Shown piece by piece: positions 36,255 to 63,681 of a stretch of DNA of 64,000 nt (positions within the stretch are counted from its first letter, which is position 1; each line of letters starts with the position of its first letter). Below the pieces are notes generated by a model that worked only from the letters and a program-made list of their open reading frames with translations, did not search any database and was not told the origin of the DNA. Source of the DNA: an uncultured virus (IMG/VR IMGVR_UViG_3300006103_001171) (Duplodnaviria > Heunggongvirae > Uroviricota > Caudoviricetes); the IMG/VR virus record IMGVR_UViG_3300006103_001171, one strand, 5' to 3'. Position numbers and translations under genes: made by a program.

Positions 36255-36285
36255 TTGACAAATTAAAAAACTTTTCGTATATTTG
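36255..36285 (+). promoter_or_regulatory. Conserved tRNA-array promoter, copy 1
   Basis: TTGACAaattaaaaaacttttcgTATATTTG, containing the Bacteroidota-type TAnnTTTG -7 box; near-identical copies precede all four tRNA arrays. Confidence 0.8.
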
Positions 36286-36330
36286 CATATAATTATTAAA
36301 GTAGTTCTTATACATAAAAATATTTCTAGA

Positions 36331-36502
36331 AAAATGGTTACGGCAACGTAAAAAAAAAATTCTACTATTGAAGGGGCTTGGCCACTCCCACGTCACCATT
36401 TATGGTGGATAAAAGCTGAAAAGTAAGTGGCACCTGTTATGATGGCAGTTTAAATCTAATCCTTGTAGTGGTAGCAAGCCAAAATAACACAAAAACCATT
36501 TT
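36331..36502 (+). ncRNA. Structured RNA of the stem-(C)GGCAA family
   Basis: Outer stem aaaatggtt/aaccatttt followed by acggcaa; inner ggcttg/caagcc and ccact/agtgg pairings. Confidence 0.5.
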
Positions 36503-36516
36503 GAGAAACTTATTAA

Positions 36517-36576
36517 AGAATCAGTTCAGCAAATTAAACAATTTTTTTATCTGAAACAAAAAAACAAAATGATTCT
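36517..36576 (+). ncRNA. Minimal stem-CAGCAA RNA
   Basis: agaatca/tgattct stem, gttCAGCAA, and an inner T-run/A-run hairpin. Confidence 0.5.
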
Positions 36577-36582
36577 GAAATT

Positions 36583-36656
36583 TACGTCATTGGTGTAATG
36601 AGCACGTGCCCCCACATGGGGGGGGTTTAGACCAGTATCAAATCTGGATGACGTAC
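36583..36656 (+). tRNA. Atypical tRNA-like element (CAT in loop)
   Basis: Acceptor tacgtca/tgacgta, C-rich/G-rich anticodon stem around acat, and a degenerate T arm. Confidence 0.4.
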
Positions 36657-36701
36657 TTGCGAGGTGGAGCAGTAGTAGCTCGCTAGGCCCGTAAAATACA
36701 T

Positions 36702-37761: not shown

Positions 37762-37804
37762 TTGACAAATTAAAAAACTTTTCGTATATTTGCATATATT
37801 TATT
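37762..37804 (+). promoter_or_regulatory. tRNA-array promoter, copy 2 (host-type box plus TATTTAT box in tandem)
   Basis: TTGACA...TATATTTGcaTATATTTATT. Confidence 0.8.
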
Positions 37805-37827: not shown

Positions 37828-37929
37828 ATGATAGCAAACATAAACAATATGATTAATTCGATAAATTGGAGACATAATAGTCGCTCAATTAATCAAGTCA
37901 TGCTATCTAGTGATGTTAATAAAATATAA
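37828..37929 (+). CDS. Putative attenuator leader peptide 1 (Ile/Asn/Met/Ser/Trp/Arg/His/Asp)
   Basis: MIANINNMINSINWRHNSRSINQVMLSSDVNKI*, between the promoter and a terminator upstream of the tRNA array. Confidence 0.75.
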   Translation: MIANINNMINSINWRHNSRSINQVMLSSDVNKI

Positions 37930-37950: not shown

Positions 37951-37988
37951 AAAAGCCTCTGACTCATACGAATCAGAGGTTTTTTTTT
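37951..37988 (+). terminator. Intrinsic terminator/attenuator of tRNA array 2
   Basis: gcctctga...tcagaggt followed by a T-run. Confidence 0.85.
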
Positions 37989-38182: not shown

Positions 38183-38283
38183 ACGTAAATGACCGAGTGG
38201 TCGAAGGTGGTAGGCTCCAACCCTACTGAGATATATAACATTTATGTTAGGTCTCCGCATAGGTTCAAATCCTATTTTACGTG
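38183..38283 (+). tRNA. tRNA-Trp (CCA) with long variable arm
   Basis: gtagg-CTCCAAC-cctac; T arm atagg-TTCAAAT-cctat; acceptor acgtaaa/tttacgt. Confidence 0.7.
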
Positions 38284-38293
38284 CAAAATATAT

Positions 38294-38460
38294 TGGTAGG
38301 TGATGAAATTAGGAATTATATTCCGATGGCAGACATGCCCAATTGTCTCTTGGGTGGTGATAACGAGATAGATAAACAATACAGGGTTGACCACTAGCTT
38401 GCAAGCGTTAATGTTGTTTATTGAATCGCACCGTGGATGGTTCGAATCCTCCTCTACCAG
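38294..38460 (+). tRNA. Expanded tRNA-Asp (GTC)-like RNA (about 167 nt)
   Basis: Acceptor tggtagg/tctacca, cccaa-TTGTCTC-ttggg arm, GGTTCGAATCC T loop, and large inserts. Confidence 0.5.
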
Positions 38461-38504
38461 CAATAGTTTACTTGGACAACGTTCTTAAAATCGGAGTCCG
38501 TCAT

Positions 38505-38587
38505 GGAGAGTGGCACCCAAGGTGGGTAACTAGACTTGAAATCTAGGCCAAGGTAAAAACTTGAGGTTTCGATTACTTCACCATCCG
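38505..38587 (+). tRNA. tRNA-Ser (TGA)
   Basis: ctaga-CTTGAAA-tctag; long variable arm. Confidence 0.7.
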
Positions 38588-38615
38588 CAATTTTGGTTGT
38601 TTTTTACTTTTTTTT

Positions 38616-38704
38616 GGAGAAATAAGGAGGGTAATGGTGGACCCCGTCCGTTTGCTAAACGGAAACCCATTAAGTTGGGCACGTTTCGATTACGTATTTC
38701 TCCG
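38616..38704 (+). tRNA. tRNA-Ser (GCT)
   Basis: tccgt-TTGCTAA-acgga; acceptor ggagaaa/tttctcc-G. Confidence 0.7.
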
Positions 38705-39222: not shown

Positions 39223-39969
39223 ATGAAAGAAAAAATATTAGAATTAAGGAAAAATGGGTTATCAATAAATGAAATAGTTGAAGAGTTAAAGTGTGCTAAA
39301 AGTACTGTTTCATACCATATAAATAAAAACGGTTTAGGTGGTATTAGAAATAGGTTCTTAAAAGGTGTTAGTGATGAAACGATAAATAAAATTAAAATTT
39401 TTAGATTAGAGTCTAAAACATATAATGAAATTTTAGAGTTAATTGACATAAGTGAGGATAAATTAAAAAAAATTTGTCGATTATTTGAGATAAATAATAG
39501 TACTGGTGGTTTTAAACTTAAAGATGTTGATAAAGATGAGGTTATAAAGTATTATTTATCTGTAAAATCAATACGAAAAACTGCTGATTATTTTAATATT
39601 AGTAGAGACACAGTTAAAAAATATATACCTGACAATCTTATCTTAATTAAAGATAAAATAACCAAATCACAATCAGTTATTAATTGGCGTAAAAGAACAA
39701 AAATTAAATTAATTGATTATAAAGGTGGTTGTTGTGAAAAGTGTGGTTATAATAAATCTACATCAGCATTACAATTTCATCATTTAAACCCTAAAGAAAA
39801 GGATTTTCAAATTGGTGGTTCAAGTTATTCATTTGAAAATCTAAAAAAAGAAGTTGATAAATGTATATTAGTATGTGCAAATTGTCATATCGAAATACAT
39901 GAAGAATTAAGGATTTGTAGCTCAGAGGCAGAGCATTCGTTTGTTAAACGACAGGTCGAGATATCGTAA
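39223..39969 (+). CDS. HNH homing endonuclease with N-terminal HTH domains
   Basis: 'YKGGCCEKCGY...LQFHH...KCILVCANCHIEIH'; the C-terminus runs into a tRNA remnant. Confidence 0.85.
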   Translation: MKEKILELRKNGLSINEIVEELKCAKSTVSYHINKNGLGGIRNRFLKGVSDETINKIKIFRLESKTYNEILELIDISEDKLKKICRLFEINNSTGGFKLKDVDKDEVIKYYLSVKSIRKTADYFNISRDTVKKYIPDNLILIKDKITKSQSVINWRKRTKIKLIDYKGGCCEKCGYNKSTSALQFHHLNPKEKDFQIGGSSYSFENLKKEVDKCILVCANCHIEIHEELRICSSEAEHSFVKRQVEIS

Positions 39970-39982
39970 TTCTCCATTAGCG
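39911..39982 (+). pseudogene. Disrupted second copy of tRNA-Asn
   Basis: Nearly identical to 39083..39154 from the D arm onward, but the 5' acceptor strand does not pair with the 3' cattagc. Confidence 0.75.
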
Positions 39983-40409: not shown

Positions 40410-40946
40410 ATGGAAAAAGAATTTTTAATTGATTGTATTAATAAAGGGTTAAGTCTAAAAAAAATAAGTAAATTATGTGGTAAAGCACCTAGTACAATAA
40501 CATATTGGTTAAATAAATTTAATTTAAAAACTAATAATTTGTCGTTTAAAGTTAAAGGAAAAATTGATTATAATAATCAAAGATGTTGCCCAAAATGTAA
40601 AATTACTAAAGAATTAAATGAATTTTATAATAGACGTGATAAAATAGGTAGTTCAGTTTATTGTAAAACTTGTACCAATAAACAAGTTTTAGATAGACAA
40701 CGGGAACTTAAGCAACAAGCTGTTGATTATAAAGGTGGGTATTGTATAATATGTGGTTATAATAAATGTAATGCGGCGTTAGAATTTCATCATTTAGAAC
40801 CAGATAAAAAAGATTTTAGCATTAGTCAATTAAAAAAATATGCCTTTACTGAAAATATAAAAAAAGAATTAGATAAATGTATTTTGTTATGTTCTAATTG
40901 TCATAGAGAATTTCATTCTGGTATTTTAATTCTAAGCAAACTATAG
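40410..40946 (+). CDS. HNH homing endonuclease
   Basis: 'YKGGYCIICGY...LEFHH...KCILLCSNCHREFH'; start taken at MEKEFL after the ATATTTATT box. Confidence 0.85.
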   Translation: MEKEFLIDCINKGLSLKKISKLCGKAPSTITYWLNKFNLKTNNLSFKVKGKIDYNNQRCCPKCKITKELNEFYNRRDKIGSSVYCKTCTNKQVLDRQRELKQQAVDYKGGYCIICGYNKCNAALEFHHLEPDKKDFSISQLKKYAFTENIKKELDKCILLCSNCHREFHSGILILSKL

Positions 40947-40969
40947 CAGTTCGAATCTGCTCGAGACCA
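40930..40969 (+). pseudogene. 3' half of a disrupted tRNA-Arg (TCT)
   Basis: TTCTAAgcaaac...gcag-TTCGAAT-ctgc-t-cgagacc-A. Confidence 0.75.
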
Positions 40970-40979
40970 CATTTTTTAT

Positions 40980-53746: not shown

Positions 53747-54469
53747 ATGAAAAAAACGCTTATCACATTAATGTTAGTATTCAGTGCATTACTAACATTT
53801 GCACAAAACACAATTACAATTAAGCACACGTATTATACAATTGAAGCGTATGATACCGCACACAGGTCTGAACTTATTGGGTTTTATATTCAGACTAAAG
53901 AGCATGCTCTTATATCGATGGATAAGACAAGTGCTATTGACAGGTCATCAGTTGGTGTTTTTAAACAAGACCCTTTAATTCCACTTTATATCCAAGAAAT
54001 AGTAACTAATGATGTTTATTCTGATTGGAATAAAGCTCATAAGAATCAAAAAGTAGATAAGGGGCATCTAGTACCTTATTCAGCGATGGATTTTAATTTA
54101 ACAGCAGCTTTAGAAAGTATGTATCTTGAAAATACATGCCCACAGGCACCCAGATTCAACGAACATCAATGGGAACAAGTTGAAATGTACGTTCTAAAGA
54201 CTGTATCACCACAATATGGTGATGTTAAAGTTTGGACTGGCGTTTTAATTGATGATAAAAAAGCGTTAAGGATTGGGCCATTATATATGCCAGATTTTTA
54301 TTGGAAAGTTATTGAGTATGTAAAGGATGGTAAAAAGGTTCAAGAAGCTTGGCTTGGCGTTAACAATTGGAGTAACGCTGATACTGACCCAACACACATC
54401 GCAACTAGTGTCGCAGCTGTAAAACAAAAGGTTTCACAGTATTATCCAAAAATAAAGTTGGATTTCTAA
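53747..54469 (+). CDS. Secreted DNA/RNA non-specific endonuclease
   Basis: Signal peptide; 'DKGHL', 'N.CPQ...FN...W..VE' and 'PDFYWK'. Confidence 0.85.
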   Translation: MKKTLITLMLVFSALLTFAQNTITIKHTYYTIEAYDTAHRSELIGFYIQTKEHALISMDKTSAIDRSSVGVFKQDPLIPLYIQEIVTNDVYSDWNKAHKNQKVDKGHLVPYSAMDFNLTAALESMYLENTCPQAPRFNEHQWEQVEMYVLKTVSPQYGDVKVWTGVLIDDKKALRIGPLYMPDFYWKVIEYVKDGKKVQEAWLGVNNWSNADTDPTHIATSVAAVKQKVSQYYPKIKLDF

Positions 54470-56284: not shown

Positions 56285-56872
56285 ATGAGAAAATTAATAA
56301 AAAAACTCTTAAGGGAAAATTTGTATGAAGCTATCACACAAAAACCAATGTTTGCTAGAGGTGTTGAACATCAAATTTATTTATCAAAGTCAGACCCAAA
56401 TATAGTCTTTAAAGTTGGATACCCTAAATCTGTTGATAGATTCGTATCGGTGTTTACATCTAATCCTGAGTATTTTCCAAAAATTTTTAAAGTTGGTAAT
56501 TTAACATGGCAGGGTAAACCATTTAAATATGCTAAAATTGAAAGACTAAATACTGAAAGAGTCATTAGTGAGTGGAATTATATTACTGGTAAATTAGATG
56601 AAGTTGGTATATTAGATACTGACTCAAATTTATTAGAAGATGTTAGCGATATTTTTAAATCGGCCATAACTGAAGATTCAGAATATGAAACGTATATTAC
56701 ATCTAAACTACAACAGCATGATAAAAAAGCCTACAAGTTATTCATAGATTGGCTTAATTTTTTACATCATGTAAATTCGATAGTTGAACCAGTAAAACAT
56801 AAAATTCTTGATATTCATAAGTATAATTTTGGTTATGATTCCAGTGGTAAAATGAAGTGTTTAGACATATAA
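56285..56872 (+). CDS. Kinase-like hypothetical protein
   Basis: 'IVFK', 'DIHKYNFG' and 'CLDI'. Confidence 0.5.
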   Translation: MRKLIKKLLRENLYEAITQKPMFARGVEHQIYLSKSDPNIVFKVGYPKSVDRFVSVFTSNPEYFPKIFKVGNLTWQGKPFKYAKIERLNTERVISEWNYITGKLDEVGILDTDSNLLEDVSDIFKSAITEDSEYETYITSKLQQHDKKAYKLFIDWLNFLHHVNSIVEPVKHKILDIHKYNFGYDSSGKMKCLDI

Positions 56873-56894
56873 AAAAATATTTTTAAAAAAAAAC

Positions 56895-56937
56895 TTGACA
56901 ATTCAAAAACTTTTCGTATATTTGCAGTATATTTATT
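56895..56937 (+). promoter_or_regulatory. tRNA-array promoter, copy 3
   Basis: TTGACAattcaaaaacttttcgTATATTTGcagTATATTTATT. Confidence 0.8.
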
Positions 56938-56961
56938 AAAAGAGATTAAAAGATAACAAAA

Positions 56962-57042
56962 ATGAGAAATTTAAACAACATATTGGTCCTTGTGTTATGT
57001 GTGCTAGTGTTAACTAGTTCTACTGGGTATTCCATGTTTTAA
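56962..57042 (+). CDS. Putative attenuator leader peptide 2 (Leu/Cys/Val)
   Basis: MRNLNNILVLVLCVLVLTSSTGYSMF*; codons 8-17 are ttg gtc ctt gtg tta tgt gtg cta gtg tta. Confidence 0.75.
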   Translation: MRNLNNILVLVLCVLVLTSSTGYSMF

Positions 57043-57066
57043 ATTTAACATTTAAAAATAATTGAG

Positions 57067-57097
57067 AAGCTCAGTCCGAAAGAACTGAGCTTTTTTT
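57067..57097 (+). terminator. Intrinsic terminator/attenuator of tRNA array 3
   Basis: aagctcagt-ccgaaaga-actgagctt followed by a T-run, ending just before tRNA-Cys. Confidence 0.85.
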
Positions 57098-57099
57098 AT

Positions 57100-57171
57100 G
57101 TGCCTTTGTCCGAGCGGTTTAGGTAGAGTTCTGCAAAAGCTCTTACGGCGGTTCAAATCCGTCAAGGCACT
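57100..57171 (+). tRNA. tRNA-Cys (GCA)
   Basis: gagtt-CTGCAAA-agctc; acceptor gtgcctt/aaggcac-T. Confidence 0.85.
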
Positions 57172-57398
57172 CTTTAAAATTAAAAACAATGGAAAAAAAA
57201 TGACATCAAAAAAGCATTGTATAAGGAAAAGCCATTAGCCACCTTATCACATTATGAAGAAGGATGGAATTGGCATAACCGAAACCTACCCAACCATAAG
57301 TGGAGAGAGTATAAGAGTTGGAAGTATAATAGAAAAACTAAGTGGAAATGAAAAAGAGATTTGATGCCTTGTAACACTCTAATGTGTAACAATGCAAA

Positions 57399-57668
57399 AT
57401 GAAAAAAATGAACAAGAAGCTGTATGATAGAACAGTTGACAACAAAACGTACAAGTTATGCCATTATCAACAAGAAAATATTTGTTGTTTAAGATGTGCG
57501 AAAAGAAGAAGAAGAAATTATTTTTATTATGACTATGACGGTGGGAAACATTGTTATCCAAGTTGGAAATTAGTAAGTAAAAATAAGAAGCAATGGATGC
57601 CAAAAAAACTTAAGATTGAGGAAGAAAAACCCAATCGTTGGTATAGTAGAGGTGACATTACTTGGTAA
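57399..57668 (+). CDS. Hypothetical basic protein
   Basis: 89-aa ORF with CxxC and 'PSWK...K.QW'. Confidence 0.55.
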   Translation: MKKMNKKLYDRTVDNKTYKLCHYQQENICCLRCAKRRRRNYFYYDYDGGKHCYPSWKLVSKNKKQWMPKKLKIEEEKPNRWYSRGDITW

Positions 57669-57764
57669 TTGCGACATCAAGACATATTAAAGTGTCGTGA
57701 TAGGTTTAAAAGTTACAAATTGTTGCAATAATTGCGACATTTCACCAGATAAATGGTGAAATAT

Positions 57765-57849
57765 GGGGGTGTGGTGGAATGGTAGACACGCAGGTCTTAA
57801 AAACCTGTGGACCGTAAGGTCCGTGTGAGTTCGACTCTCATTGCCCCTA
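57765..57849 (+). tRNA. tRNA-Leu (TAA)
   Basis: caggt-CTTAAAA-acctg; long variable arm. Confidence 0.85.
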
Positions 57850-57961
57850 CACAACTGTGTTTCTGATAGGGTTGCTCAGTAGGAGCTCCAGTAAACCTTA
57901 TCCGTTGATGAATAGTGGTCATGACATGAGTTCATTTTTCTGGTACGACAATCCAGAATAC

Positions 57962-58049
57962 GGCCCTATGAGCAAATTGGTAAAGCTTGCGGTCTAAGAA
58001 ACCGTGGAAAACATTAGAAACGTTCTCAGTTCAAATCTGAGTAGGGCTA
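57962..58049 (+). tRNA. tRNA-Leu (AAG)
   Basis: gcggt-CTAAGAA-accgt; long variable arm; acceptor ggcccta/tagggct-A. Confidence 0.75.
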
Positions 58050-58051
58050 CT

Positions 58052-58273
58052 ATGAGTTTTAATTTTGATGAAAAGAAAATTGGTGATATAGTTCAGATGA
58101 CGGATTATTTTATAAGTATAAATCCTAGTGAACATATTCAGGAATTTAAAGATTGTGAAGGCGAAGTTATTGGTTATAGTGATGAAGGTTATACTGATTA
58201 CTTAGATGTTAGATGGCAACCTAGTGGGTTAAGATATGGTTATCATTGGGTACATTTAAAACTAGTCCAATAA
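58052..58273 (+). CDS. Hypothetical protein
   Basis: Start moved to MSFNFD because the track start lies inside tRNA-Leu. Confidence 0.55.
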   Translation: MSFNFDEKKIGDIVQMTDYFISINPSEHIQEFKDCEGEVIGYSDEGYTDYLDVRWQPSGLRYGYHWVHLKLVQ

Positions 58274-58446
58274 TGGCTAAAAAAGTATCAAAAGAAGTTC
58301 AGATTAAACATTCTGAGGATTATGTTGAATTTCTAATTAAGCGGTTAAATTCTAACAACTATAAGTTAGCAGCAACTAAGGAAGAGTATGCGGCAACTAA
58401 AGCTAAATTAGATAAAGAGCGATTGATACTTAAGTTGTTAAAATAA
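58273..58446 (+). CDS. Hypothetical protein
   Basis: MAKKVSK..., with TAATG overlap. Confidence 0.55.
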   Translation: MAKKVSKEVQIKHSEDYVEFLIKRLNSNNYKLAATKEEYAATKAKLDKERLILKLLK

Positions 58447-58447
58447 T

Positions 58448-58529
58448 GGGGGTATGCTGGAAATGGTATACAGCTACGGTTTAGACCCGTAGGTCAAAAG
58501 ATTTGCAAGTTCGAACCTTGTTACCCTCA
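58448..58529 (+). tRNA. tRNA-Leu (TAG)
   Basis: tacgg-TTTAGAC-ccgta; acceptor gggggta/taccctc-A. Confidence 0.8.
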
Positions 58530-58531
58530 CA

Positions 58532-58614
58532 AAGATGATTTCAGCAAATAAATAGGATAAAAATTTACACTTAAAATGCAAATCGAAAGGGTTCAAATCC
58601 CTAAAAATCATCTT
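58532..58614 (+). ncRNA. Stem-CAGCAA RNA containing tRNA-like arms
   Basis: aagatgattt/aaatcatctt stem, CAGCAA, CTTAAAA loop, and T arm aggg-TTCAAAT-ccct. Confidence 0.55.
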
Positions 58615-58687
58615 GTTTTTTATTAACATATTAAATAATAGTAGAGTTTATATTTACATTTTCATAAACTCTACTATATTTATTAAT

Positions 58688-59356
58688 ATGAGAAAAGATA
58701 TTATAGAAAAAGAAAATGATGTTTTACAAATGATTGCAAATAATGACCCTAAAGCAATGATTTGTAGGTTTTTAAATTGTAGACCAGAGGTTCTTGAAAA
58801 ATATTTAAAATTAAAGGGTATTAAATATAGTGGTAATCGTAGAATGGTTGGTCGGAGAAATCATCCGCATAAAAAATCTGTGGATGAATATTTGGCTCAA
58901 GATAGGATATCAATACATAAATTAAGAATTAAACTTATAGAAGAGGGTATTAAAAAAAATGAGTGTGAAAATTGTAAATTAACTGAATGGTGTGGAAGTA
59001 AAATTCCTTTAGAGTTGCATCATATAGATGGAAATAAATTAAATAACGATTTAAATAACCTACAAATCTTATGTCCAAATTGCCATGCGTTAACACCAAA
59101 TCACGCTGGAAAAAAGAATAAAAAGAAATTTGAAGATAAAGCTATCCATAAAAGAATAAAACTTTGTAAATGCGGCAAGACAATAAAAAAAACTAGTAAT
59201 GAATGTCTTAGTTGTTATCATGAAAAACAACGTAAGATTAAAAATGCTAATTTAACGGAATTAATAGATAGTGTTAATAAAATTGGTTATTTAGCGACTG
59301 GTAGAAAATATGGTGTTAGTGATAACACAATTAGAAAATATATAAACAAAAAATAA
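58688..59356 (+). CDS. HNH homing endonuclease
   Basis: 'CENC...LELHHIDG...N...NLQILCPNCHA'; start taken at MRKDII. Confidence 0.85.
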   Translation: MRKDIIEKENDVLQMIANNDPKAMICRFLNCRPEVLEKYLKLKGIKYSGNRRMVGRRNHPHKKSVDEYLAQDRISIHKLRIKLIEEGIKKNECENCKLTEWCGSKIPLELHHIDGNKLNNDLNNLQILCPNCHALTPNHAGKKNKKKFEDKAIHKRIKLCKCGKTIKKTSNECLSCYHEKQRKIKNANLTELIDSVNKIGYLATGRKYGVSDNTIRKYINKK

Positions 59357-60157
59357 ATGTTTTACGTTATTCAAGAGAATGTCTTTAGGGAAGAACATTA
59401 TGATATGTTAATTGATTTAATCAAACGACATAAGTTTGAATATGATATAGTTAAATATCGACCATTTTTAAATGAGATAGTTGCACTTCCAGTTGAAAAT
59501 GATGGTGAACAACAAGAAGACGTTATTTATAAAACAGACCGTAAAAATGTTTTTTGTTTCGGTGCTGTTTCAATGGCCAAAGCTGCCACAAAGTATGGTT
59601 GGAACCCTGGTTCAATGATGAATAAAAACCATGACTATGAAGTATATGGAAAAGCATTTGGATTTGAAAACATGTTAAATGGCGAGGGTCATGTTATCAA
59701 TTTTATTGATAAAATACCTATTGATAACTTTTTATTCTTCGCAAGACCAACAAGAGATACGAAGGTTTTTTCAGGACAAATATTTACACAAGATTCTTGG
59801 AAAGAATACGTTGCTGCTGTTAGACATATCAGTGATGAAACAAAAATTCTTATTTCTCCCTTAAAACAGATTCAACAAGAAGTTAGATGCTGGGTTATTG
59901 GTGGTAAGATAGTAACTGCAAGTTCATATAAGATAGGTACTCGTGTAGTTTATACCAACTATGATGATGAAACATTCTTTACAGACTTCGCACAAAAGAT
60001 GATTGATGTATATCAACCAGCCGAAGCATTCGTTATTGATATTGCCTTGGCTAACGACAAATTGAGTGTCATTGAAATTAATAATATCAATTCAGCTGGA
60101 TTTTATGATTGTAATATGGTAAAACTCATAACAGCGTTAGAAAATCATTTTAATTAA
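59357..60157 (+). CDS. ATP-grasp protein (R2K/DUF4343-like)
   Basis: 'FARP...K.FSG', 'EVRCWVI.G' and 'VIDIA...VIEIN..N.AGFY'. Confidence 0.7.
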   Translation: MFYVIQENVFREEHYDMLIDLIKRHKFEYDIVKYRPFLNEIVALPVENDGEQQEDVIYKTDRKNVFCFGAVSMAKAATKYGWNPGSMMNKNHDYEVYGKAFGFENMLNGEGHVINFIDKIPIDNFLFFARPTRDTKVFSGQIFTQDSWKEYVAAVRHISDETKILISPLKQIQQEVRCWVIGGKIVTASSYKIGTRVVYTNYDDETFFTDFAQKMIDVYQPAEAFVIDIALANDKLSVIEINNINSAGFYDCNMVKLITALENHFN

Positions 60158-62531: not shown

Positions 62532-62587
62532 AACTAGTTCTTAAAGTCACTAAAAAAAAAATTTTTTAAAAATAATTCAAAAAAAAC

Positions 62588-62629
62588 TTGACAATTCAAA
62601 AACTTTTCGTATATTTGCATATATTTATT
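62588..62629 (+). promoter_or_regulatory. tRNA-array promoter, copy 4
   Basis: TTGACAattcaaaaacttttcgTATATTTGcaTATATTTATT. Confidence 0.8.
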
Positions 62630-62653: not shown

Positions 62654-62752
62654 ATGAAAAAGGCATATACATATTATCAACCGAAAACGCAAGGGGGCAA
62701 AACTCCTAATAGGCTGGGTGTATCTTTTTCTGATGAAGATGATTGTAAGTAA
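62654..62752 (+). CDS. Putative attenuator leader peptide 3 (Tyr/Thr/Gln/Pro/Gly/Lys)
   Basis: MKKAYTYYQPKTQGGKTPNRLGVSFSDEDDCK*. Confidence 0.75.
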   Translation: MKKAYTYYQPKTQGGKTPNRLGVSFSDEDDCK

Positions 62753-62772: not shown

Positions 62773-62809
62773 AAACCCCAGTCTGATGAAAATTCAAACT
62801 GGGGTTTTT
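62773..62809 (+). terminator. Intrinsic terminator/attenuator of tRNA array 4
   Basis: aaaccccagt...actggggttttt, ending just before tRNA-Pro. Confidence 0.85.
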
Positions 62810-62815
62810 AATTTT

Positions 62816-62890
62816 CGGGAAGTTCCACAGATGGCTATATGGGCTTGTTTTGGAGACAAGTGTTCGCTCGTTCGAATCGAGTTTTCCCGA
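62816..62890 (+). tRNA. tRNA-Pro (TGG)
   Basis: cttgt-TTTGGAG-acaag; acceptor cgggaag/tttcccg-A. Confidence 0.75.
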
Positions 62891-62939
62891 CACAGATTGG
62901 TTGGTACCGTAGACAGCAAAAATAAGGAACGGTATAAAA

Positions 62940-63027
62940 CTAAGTGTGTAGTCAATCGAAGACGACTCCCTTTGGAGCGGAGAATAGCTGTAAAAGGCTT
63001 ATGCAGGTTCGAGCCCTGTCACTTAGA
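62940..63027 (+). tRNA. tRNA-Pro (TGG)-like, long variable arm
   Basis: Acceptor ctaagtg/cacttag, TTTGGAG loop, gcagg-TTCGAGC-cctgt. Confidence 0.55.
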
Positions 63028-63034
63028 CTAAAAT

Positions 63035-63106
63035 TGGGTTGTGGTGTAATGGTAACTACGTGTGGTTTTGGTCCACAAGTTTGGGGTTCGAGTCCCTACA
63101 ACCCAA
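63035..63106 (+). tRNA. tRNA-Gln (TTG)
   Basis: tgtgg-TTTTGGT-ccaca. Confidence 0.85.
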
Positions 63107-63191
63107 CAAAGTAAAGAAGTAATTGGGTTAGCTGTTTTCCGTGGCTGGTCTGATGAAGGTTAAGTCCTTATGATTAAATAACGGATAAATT

Positions 63192-63263
63192 GGGATAGCC
63201 AGCAGGGTTCTGAAGACAGTCTGTAAAACTGAACTTCGTGTGTTTCGAGTACACCCTATCCCA
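63192..63263 (+). tRNA. tRNA-Tyr (GTA), atypical short form
   Basis: cagt-CTGTAAA-actg; acceptor gggatag/ctatccc-A. Confidence 0.55.
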
Positions 63264-63268
63264 CATTT

Positions 63269-63350
63269 GGGTCAGTCGCATAGAGGCAATTGCCGCGGAC
63301 TGTAAATCCGCTCTCTTCGGAGTTCACAGGTTCGAGTCCTGTTTGGCCCA
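63269..63350 (+). tRNA. tRNA-Tyr (GTA)
   Basis: gcgga-CTGTAAA-tccgc; long variable arm. Confidence 0.85.
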
Positions 63351-63358
63351 CAAAAAAT

Positions 63359-63429
63359 GCCTCCAAAGCATATATGGTGATGTACCTGACTTGTAATCAG
63401 GGAAGTTGATTCGAGTTCAACTGGAGGCT
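63359..63429 (+). tRNA. tRNA-Thr (TGT)
   Basis: cctga-CTTGTAA-tcagg. Confidence 0.8.
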
Positions 63430-63450
63430 CAAGAGTCTTATATAAAAAAT

Positions 63451-63522
63451 GCGGATATAGCACAGTGGTTAGTGTTGGGGTCTTCCAAACCTCAGACGTC
63501 AGTTCGAATCTGACTATCCGCT
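63451..63522 (+). tRNA. tRNA-Gly (TCC)
   Basis: ggggt-CTTCCAA-acctc; acceptor gcggata/tatccgc-T. Confidence 0.85.
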
Positions 63523-63681
63523 CATTGGCTAATTTATTTTATAAAATAAATTTGTTTTGATTATGGAAAAAAATTGACTTTTATTGTATTTATATGTATA
63601 TTTGTGACGTAAAAAAGTTTTATAAATAGTGCTTTTGAAATATCTAAGCCACACATAACAAATAAAAATTAATTAATTAAA

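Follow-up and report, generated by a model that had tools for sequence, protein, structure and literature searches.

A probable leader-peptide attenuator ahead of a tRNA array in an uncultured jumbo phage

Introduction

What is the role of a short open reading frame (ORF) that stands, with a hairpin behind it, directly ahead of four phage tRNA genes? The question is raised by positions 56895–58620 of a stretch of 64,000 nucleotides (nt), hereafter the window, from an uncultured virus of the Caudoviricetes (IMG/VR record IMGVR_UViG_3300006103_001171), which is a giant or jumbo phage of Flavobacteria-like hosts. An original prediction, drawn from the letters alone, held that the encoded leader peptide samples codons read by the downstream tRNAs and controls a terminator via alternative pairing. 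Sequence comparison supports this idea, and a phage tRNA operon is probably gated here by a leader-peptide transcription attenuator: diverged relatives keep the ORF as well as its length and its distance of 20–35 nt to the terminator, the composition of the leader follows that of the array in 14 units, and a complement of the terminator arm is kept across unrelated stems.

The leader ORF and its codons

The elements of the unit on which the argument depends are as follows.

56895–56924, plus strand: promoter, TTGACA, 16 nt, TATATT; 11 of 12 consensus positions
56962–57042, plus strand: leader ORF of 26 codons, MRNLNNILVLVLCVLVLTSSTGYSMF; ATG at 56962, TAA stop at 57040–57042
56983–57012, plus strand: regulatory block, codons 8–17, TTG GTC CTT GTG TTA TGT GTG CTA GTG TTA
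57022–57032, plus strand: putative antiterminator 5′ strand, complement of the terminator 5′ arm
57037–57057, plus strand: AT-rich spacer hairpin, 57037–57044 paired with 57050–57057 in constrained folds
57064–57097, plus strand: intrinsic terminator, stem 57064–57075/57084–57095, U-run 57091–57097 (7 U)
57100–57172, plus strand: tRNA-Cys(GCA), ARAGORN and Rfam (47.8 bits)
57765–57850, plus strand: tRNA-Leu(TAA), ARAGORN and Rfam
57962–58050, plus strand: tRNA-Leu(AAG), ARAGORN and Rfam
58448–58530, plus strand: tRNA-Leu(TAG), ARAGORN and Rfam

The four tRNA genes score 41.6–51.7 bits with Rfam. The regulatory block, which was found exactly as the original prediction had read it, encodes L V L V L C V L V L, and with standard wobble all seven Leu and Cys codons of the leader ORF are readable by anticodons of its own array, as had been claimed for those of the block. 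Six of the ten block codons are thus served by array tRNAs, and the other four are rare Val codons. Among the 273 ORFs of 20–45 codons that start with ATG in the window, the leader ORF alone has ten consecutive Leu, Cys or Val codons (the runner-up has seven of ten), and it is one of four with at least six Leu or Cys codons in ten. Leu and Cys together account for 7 of its 25 codons, against the 9% expected from 15,645 residues of long ORFs (binomial P=6.6e-3).

The choice among synonymous codons within the block leans to rare ones (P=0.0014). The four Val codons are without exception GTC or GTG, either of which makes up about 5% of Val usage in the long ORFs of the window (P=3e-4), and CTA and TTG each make up about 9–10% of Leu usage. 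Synonymous codons therefore do not vary freely here; free variation, in a conserved membrane microprotein, is what the original prediction had named as speaking against it. The start codon is preceded by AAA, with A at position −3, and the ORF has no Shine-Dalgarno sequence. Bacteroidota mRNAs are described in one study as having no Shine-Dalgarno sequences and favouring A at −3 (PMC6847099).

Codon content of leaders and their arrays

The unit of promoter, leader, terminator and tRNA genes occurs three times in the window and also in related jumbo-phage contigs. Besides the leader at 56962 (leader B), the window holds two sister leaders.

37828–37929: leader A, promoter copy at 37762; reads MIANINNMINSINWRHNSRS... 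/ MIANINNMINSINWRHNSRSINQ...
62654–62752: leader C, promoter copy at 62588; reads MKKAYTYYQPKTQGGKTP...

Leader A is followed by a terminator near 37952–37983 and then by tRNA genes for Trp, Ser, His, Ile, Met, Asn, Arg(ACG), Arg(TCT) and Ser(GCT); 24 of its 32 codons match its own array, against 30% expected (P=2.6e-7). The first tRNA of array A, a stretch of 100 nt at 38183–38283 found by Rfam alone (53 bits), is Trp in relatives and is probably a tRNA-Trp with an insertion. Leader C is followed by a terminator at 62773–62807 and then by tRNA genes for Pro, Pro, Gln, Tyr, Thr and Gly.

Related contigs were recovered by pattern scans of IMG/VR. Among at least 120 motif loci, 24 had a short ORF running through the motif; 10 of these 24, among the matches listed, were B-type leaders with tRNA-Cys behind them, the others being unrelated chance matches. 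One of the related genomes, G005, is 362 kb long, rated 100% complete, and has at least 45 tRNA matches. The ORFs ahead of tRNA-Cys in related contigs are homologous and 24–35 codons long, and B-type leaders keep their composition, not their sequence (VLVLCVLVL, VLCLSVLVLC, LLSLCLLVE, ALLDCTAVLFDAFDAL). More generally, all 20 distinct tRNA-linked leaders that were retained, among the matches listed, have 24–35 codons and are followed, 20–35 nt past the stop codon, by a hairpin and a T-run. The leader G006_D was added by hand to the automated unit scan; ORFs of that scan without a downstream tRNA, mostly with weak hairpins of 7–8 bp, were dropped, and L105, which has an 11-bp hairpin and no tRNA, was kept among the 21 leaders of the structure tests described below.

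The match between leaders and arrays was assessed in 14 curated units from the window and five related contigs (G004–G008). At least one codon in the own leader was found for 78 of the 79 amino-acid identities of the arrays (Fisher odds ratio 70, P=1.6e-16, a pooled value that overstates independence in that the compared units are kin), and the lone unrepresented identity is Met, with the start codon excluded. For 93 of 100 anticodons, the own leader contains a strictly decodable codon. The own array serves 59.2% of leader codons, a share that none of 20000 permutations of the arrays reached (mean 29.4%), and the true pairing of leaders with arrays is the best permutation in each of four genomes (1 of 6, 1 of 24, 1 of 6 and 1 of 2). 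Each leader carries a block of about 10–12 codons that specify almost wholly amino acids of its own array; the best 12-codon stretch has 8–12 matches in 13 of the units and, without Val, 6 of 12 in the B unit of the window.

Arrays that have been fused or regrouped are of particular value, as they provide more independent cases than the other units. In G004, the Cys/Val/Leu array is fused with one for Asp, Phe and Ala, and the leader reads ...ILALLDCTAVLFDAFDAL...; in G005, a separate leader (...IFDFAFFAAEED...) precedes Phe, Phe, Glu, Asp, Asp, Glu and Ala. Two leaders of G007 read ...FKHTMSFTICSKW... before Phe, Trp, Arg, Cys, His, Ser, Met and Thr, and ...LLTNILTLNPNPLYNGNRGNVQS... before Arg, Pro, Asn, Leu, Leu, Tyr, Met, Val, Gly, Thr, Gln and Ser. 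Leaders thus appear to change when arrays fuse or regroup.

Promoter, terminator and putative antiterminator

The second promoter box, which reads TATATTTG (56917–56924), corresponds to the −7 box TAnnTTTG of Bacteroidota sigma-A. In Flavobacterium this box is placed at −12 to −5, according to a transcriptomic study (PMC9723704), and a transcript start near 56929 is predicted on that basis. The combination of TTGACA, a spacer of 14–18 nt and TATATTTG is present in four copies in the window (36255, 37762, 56895 and 62588) against none expected, and the copy at 62587 is identical over 33 nt.

The terminator folds at −16.0 kcal/mol (RNAfold) and is part of the minimum-free-energy structure of the whole leader (z=-2.45). 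Its stem begins 21 nt after the stop codon of the leader ORF. As the original prediction had it, the terminator ends immediately before tRNA-Cys: only 2 nt (57098–57099) separate the U-run from the tRNA, so that there is no room for a separate promoter.

The segment ACTGGGTATTC (57022–57032), which sits 19–6 nt before the stop codon, can pair with GAAGCTCAGT (57066–57075) in the 5′ arm of the terminator. The core ACUGGGU (57022–57028) forms a 7-bp duplex (−8.4 kcal/mol) with GCUCAGU (57069–57075), and the helix is lengthened by pairing of UUC with GAA (57066–57068). The duplex amounts to −8.4 to −9.7 kcal/mol, and the whole alternative structure, folded without the 3′ arm of the terminator, to −11.6 kcal/mol. 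In between, the AT-rich spacer hairpin includes the stop codon and closes the antiterminator junction; similar AT-rich palindromes were seen by eye in the spacers of the related loci L001 and L040. The strings, coordinates and 7-bp duplex of the originally predicted pairing thus hold, but taken alone the pairing in the window is modest. A contig of a close relative carries T57028C, which converts a G-U pair of the antiterminator helix into G-C. Two runs that are labelled metatranscriptomic and flagged as probably DNA cover small shares of the stretch; in one of them, an 808-nt contig of a close relative spans the leader, the terminator, the position of tRNA-Cys and the start of tRNA-Leu.

The pairing is much more evident across relatives. 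Because a MAFFT alignment of seven B-type leaders misaligned the non-homologous terminator arms, duplex energies were compared with those of shuffled sequences and of mismatched arms. In 21 distinct leaders, pairing with the own 5′ arm averages −11.5 kcal/mol, against −7.7 kcal/mol with mismatched arms (Mann-Whitney P=1.4e-8). For 10 of the 11 distinct B-type leaders among the matches listed, the best complement is located 21–6 nt ahead of the stop codon, a placement that is kept over terminator stems that differ; the exception is G004, with its complement at −33 to −20. The stems include GCUCAGU, CCCAGU, AGCCCA, ACCCAU, CCCAGCC and UAGCCCAUCC. The paired segments include ACUGGGC/GCUCAGU, AUGGGU/ACCCAU, GGCUGGG/CCCAGCC, CAUGGGCUA/UAGCCCAU, GGGCUU/AAGCCC and UCGGACU/AGUCCGG. 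The location of the pairing segment at this site accounts for the conserved Gly codon near the C-terminus of the peptide.

Leader C differs in layout. Its antiterminator strand (GGCUGGGUG, about 62710–62720) is situated 41–28 nt before the stop codon and is also complementary to the regulatory codons just upstream (ACUCC), which would give a trp-like layout of four regions.

Valine codons without a cognate tRNA in the array

The original prediction carried the caveat that four Val codons of the block have no tRNA-Val in the array. This is correct: ARAGORN and Rfam found no tRNA-Val in the window, and cmscan found none in the array at E<=1. A hidden tRNA-Val in the spacer at 57851–57961 was considered and rejected, since this spacer folds no better than shuffled sequences (z=-0.69).

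The search for tRNA-Val in the arrays of related phages, which had been proposed as a check, gave a positive answer. Among the matches listed, tRNA-Val was found in nine of nine non-identical contigs with at least 0.9 kb of array behind a B-type leader (L001, L004, L040, L008/G004, L021, G005, G006, L176 and L179); these have Val(TAC), often together with Val(GAC). Four more B-type loci extend over about 330 nt each, a length within which tRNA-Cys alone is found. Among the matches listed, tRNA-Val is missing only in the window and its identical copies L016 and L018. The place of the difference could be located in the window:

57358/57359: Val-loss junction, from pairwise alignment with L001 and a blastn map

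In L001, which has its terminator and Cys tRNA in common with the window, Val(TAC) and Val(GAC) lie between flanks that are adjacent in the window at this junction, and three Val tRNA genes occupy the corresponding site in G006. Of the Val codons in the leader, GTG suits Val(TAC) and GTC suits Val(GAC). Because relatives keep these tRNAs in the array, the Val codons of the window are concluded to be ancestral sensor codons, a relic of a state before the phage lost the matching tRNA genes by deletion near 57358/57359, and the caveat is thereby resolved. With the Val tRNAs lost, the leader would now also report host Val decoding.

Leader C offers a parallel to the lagging Val codons of the leader at 56962. 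It keeps several Lys codons, and its array in the window (62816–63523) contains no tRNA-Lys; the C-type arrays of the relatives G005, G006 and L046 contain two or three.

A model for control of the tRNA operon

The architecture, its conservation, the codon–array match, the choice of rare codons and the complementarity that covaries with the terminator arm are observed directly. From these features we infer that the leader is translated, that ribosomes stall at particular sites within it and that read-through responds to tRNA supply. In the proposed model, transcription would start at the promoter at 56895–56924 and the 26-codon leader would be translated. If the Leu, Cys and Val codons are decoded fast, the ribosome would reach the TAA at 57040 and cover both 57022–57032 and the spacer hairpin, the terminator at 57064–57097 would fold, and transcription would stop 2 nt before tRNA-Cys. 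When one or more of these decoders run short, the ribosome would stall in codons 8–17 and leave 57022–57032 free to pair with the 5′ arm of the terminator, and transcription would read through into tRNA-Cys, into the ORFs that lie within the array and into the three tRNA-Leu genes. The new tRNAs would then relieve the stall, which closes a negative feedback loop.

The geometry of the leader is judged by ribosome footprint sizes, which are general knowledge. A ribosome at the TAA would cover 57022–57032 and melt the spacer hairpin, and one stalled at codons 8–16 would leave the segment free. On the side of the host, a transcriptomic study of Flavobacterium reports strong signs that amino-acid operons are preceded by leader-peptide attenuators (PMC9723704), so that the machinery required by the model is plausibly available.

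A broader interpretation may be offered tentatively, at slightly less than an even chance. The leaders may together form a modular homeostat of tRNA pools, in which each array is locked behind its own test message that samples nearly every isoacceptor, often via rare codons. The phage would detect decoders that are missing or destroyed, for example by anticodon-nuclease defences, transcribe the matching set and shut it off on restoration, and the leaders would be re-coded with the arrays. With the same reserve, the window might be regarded as a lagging state of such a system, in which the Val codons of leader B and the Lys codons of leader C have been left over.

Alternative explanations

Several observations weigh against control of the operon by an attenuator. 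The array of the window matches just 7 of 25 leader codons when Val is left out, and the compared units are related to one another, as pointed out above. The four different Leu codons to which the original prediction had drawn attention are present, but they do not constitute a significant signal: at least four kinds among six Leu codons arise by chance with P=0.19, all three Leu isoacceptor classes are touched by chance with P=0.37, and this argument was dropped as independent evidence. The antiterminator of the window (−9.7 kcal/mol) contains two G-U pairs and is equalled by 15% of shuffled upstream regions, and 6 of 18 unrelated terminator arms pair as well with the upstream region of the window. 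The hairpin at 57064–57097 is not listed by a scan for consensus terminators; in our reading it was missed because part of the T-run is taken up by the stem and the remainder is too short for the tail rule of the tool. The three tRNA-Leu genes lie 0.66–1.35 kb downstream, behind ORFs, and internal promoters for them are possible. Within 57100–58600 there is one TAnnTTTG box, at 58060, and E. coli-type promoter matches occur at chance density (70 against 55.8 +/- 7.8 expected). Finally, the leader peptide is hydrophobic enough for a function of its own, and it could also have such a second role.

The last point leads to the explanation that the ORF encodes a functional small hydrophobic, possibly membrane-bound, peptide, that the hairpin is an ordinary leaky terminator and that the resemblance to the array is incidental. 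The 11-residue core of Leu, Val and Cys could indeed sit in a membrane, the ORF is conserved in relatives, and the antiterminator of the window is not significant alone. This explanation is nevertheless highly unlikely, because the sister leaders behind the same promoter are hydrophilic and each matches its own array, B-type homologues preserve composition rather than sequence, and rare codons are preferred (P=0.0014). In addition, the conserved C-terminal Gly coincides with an RNA pairing segment that changes with the terminator arm, and codons for Asp, Phe and Ala have been gained exactly where the array has gained those tRNAs. A small membrane protein or type I toxin-like peptide was also considered as a candidate in its own right and rejected, the context being always promoter, ORF, terminator and tRNA-Cys.

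A translation-coupled but generic attenuator would respond to overall translation capacity, amino-acid starvation or host shut-off and not to the supply of the tRNAs of the array. What the trp and his leader attenuators detect is charged tRNA, whose level reflects both the supply of the amino acid and the amount of tRNA, and the Val codons persist without a phage tRNA-Val; both facts would suit a generic sensor. Such a sensor would have no need of array-specific codon sets, yet nearly all identities (78 of 79) and anticodons (93 of 100) of the arrays are represented, and leaders are re-coded on regrouping of the arrays. Because extra tRNA cannot cure amino-acid starvation, a match of leader and array would be favoured by selection only if tRNA supply is the quantity that is sensed; the generic version is accordingly considered improbable. 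It is also conceivable that the hairpin is mainly an element for pre-tRNA processing or stability, as part of the 5′ leader removed by RNase P or as protection from exonucleases, and that translation of the ORF only clears or exposes it while transcription is unregulated. The U-run abuts the 5′ end of tRNA-Cys with a gap of 2 nt, so that RNase P would have to cut any read-through transcript at this point. A GC-rich stem with seven U residues behind it is, in contrast, a canonical intrinsic terminator, and a conserved complement of its 5′ arm within the ribosome footprint of the stop codon would have no role in pure processing, which makes this explanation extremely unlikely. A leader-peptide attenuator that responds to the tRNAs of the array is thus the preferred reading.

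Relation to known attenuators

Leader-peptide attenuation is textbook knowledge for amino-acid operons, and leader-peptide control of tRNA genes would be a variant of it with different targets. The ilvGMEDA, ilvBN and thr leaders are multivalent leader-peptide attenuators of enterobacterial operons. They resemble the unit of the window in having a promoter, a short ORF with a block of codons for several amino acids (Leu, Val, Ile), a terminator and an antiterminator, and in the logic by which slow decoding leads to read-through. In contrast, the unit of the window targets tRNA genes rather than biosynthetic enzymes, so that its product would feed back directly on the sensor; it is carried by a phage and is modular, each array having a leader with a codon set of its own; and it has a Bacteroidota-type promoter and no Shine-Dalgarno sequence, and no relationship to the ilv and thr leaders was found by sequence or Rfam. 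The leuL leader of E. coli and Salmonella contains a run of Leu codons that uses the rare CUA. It likewise employs Leu codons, and rare synonyms, as a sensor, but its Leu codons are consecutive and of one kind, whereas the leader of the window mixes Leu codons with those for Val and Cys and takes in all Leu isoacceptors of the array. T-box riboswitches also sense tRNA status and switch between terminator and antiterminator upstream of translation-related genes; they bind uncharged tRNA directly via a specifier codon and the T-box motif, without translation, whereas the window has a conserved ORF instead.

A cmscan of 56850–58700 with 4227 Rfam families at E<=1 returned the tRNAs and sub-threshold chance matches such as MicC and FopS, with no T-box and none of the curated leader families, among which are those for the Leu, His, Thr and Trp leaders. 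Over the whole window, Rfam at its gathering score gave no family for the leader. A DNA search of GenBank phages gave only tRNA-sized matches and no homologous region, and a tblastn search of these phages with a neighbouring 772-aa protein matched only one unannotated 595-kb uncultured phage; in neither search did a cultured phage show a counterpart of the region. No leader-peptide control of tRNA genes was found in full-text literature searches, whose coverage does not extend to about 1.7 million PubMed Central articles or to most papers in subscription journals; a paper that uses the term 'tRNA operon' (PMC3082878) proved irrelevant.

If the model is correct, the tRNA product is the ligand of its own sensor in a direct feedback loop, which would explain how large phages can carry tRNA genes by the dozen and yet avoid indiscriminate expression. 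It would also tie phage tRNA arrays to host range and to tRNA-targeting defences, and it would provide a natural sensor of individual tRNA pools that is small, can be re-coded with ease and could be reused in synthetic biology. Arrays that are fused, split or eroded, together with the leaders that match them, give a rare view of a regulatory code co-evolving with its targets.

Other features of the array and its surroundings

The remaining features of the unit at 56895–58620 are listed here.

57399–57668, plus strand: Cys-rich basic ORF of 89 aa inside the array, presumably co-transcribed
58052–58273 and 58273–58446, plus strand: two small ORFs between tRNA-Leu(AAG) and tRNA-Leu(TAG), from the ORF list
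58532–58620, plus strand: probable end of the unit, 10-bp stem around a T-arm-like hairpin (GGGUUCAAAUCCC), then a U-run

None of the three embedded ORFs has a match in Pfam or PHROG. The stretch at 57248–57837 is 81% identical to G006, and 58447–58606 is conserved in G005. The stretch at 58532–58620 folds at −14.5 kcal/mol (z=-2.15) and looks like a tRNA remnant that probably serves as a terminator.

The tRNA units resemble paralogues produced by duplication and re-coding. Common to the leader types A, B, D and E are the promoter and, just before the variable block, the N-terminal codons AAC-AAC-ATA or ACT-AAC-ATA (..NNI.. or ..TNI..), as seen at 37828 and 56962 of the window and at the loci L142, L154, L155 and L148; these conserved codons might have a role in pausing. 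Single tRNA genes of the phage to which the window belongs, one for an amber suppressor (anticodon CTA) and one for tRNA-Phe, each have a plain TAnnTTTG promoter and no leader, which speaks for the attenuator reading of the array units. They are found at L141 1560–1631 (G002:C1:56359–56429) and L140 1661–1733, and the contig of L141 (G002) also has the B and C units of the window. CTA suppressor tRNAs are present in G004–G007 as well, and TAG may be recoded late in infection in this group of phages.

Array A contains further tRNA-like material. Within 38183–38700, at least three more tRNA-like stretches that ARAGORN does not call have acceptor-like and T-arm-like ends (about 38290–38460, 38470–38590 and 38600–38700). 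Two ORFs inside the array (39225–39975 and 40413–40975) have CxxC...HH motifs typical of HNH homing endonucleases, and behind each of them is a partial or duplicate tRNA, namely an Asn-like copy at 39911–39974 (30.7 bits) and, near 40925–40975, what looks like the 3′ half of Arg(TCT), which suggests insertion of endonuclease genes into tRNA genes of the array.

The fourth promoter copy (36255) precedes a different arrangement. The stretch at 36255–36700 has a five-codon ORF, MVTAT, at 36334, followed by about 330 nt that are richer in GC and apparently structured, and then by two tRNA-Met(CAT) genes. Parts of it (AATCAGTTCAGCAAA..AAACAATTTTTT) recur ahead of Met tRNAs in G005 and G008. No Rfam family matches the structured part, which may be an unclassified RNA or another kind of leader.

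Outside the three arrays, a third HNH-like ORF (58613–59356, weak Pfam HNH hits) comes after array B, and an R2K-clade ATP-grasp protein (E=8e-19, 59357–60157) adjoins the tRNA region. Upstream of the leader, 53747–54469 encodes a secreted DNA/RNA non-specific endonuclease (Pfam Endonuclease_NS, E=1.4e-23) with a signal peptide of Bacteroidota style.

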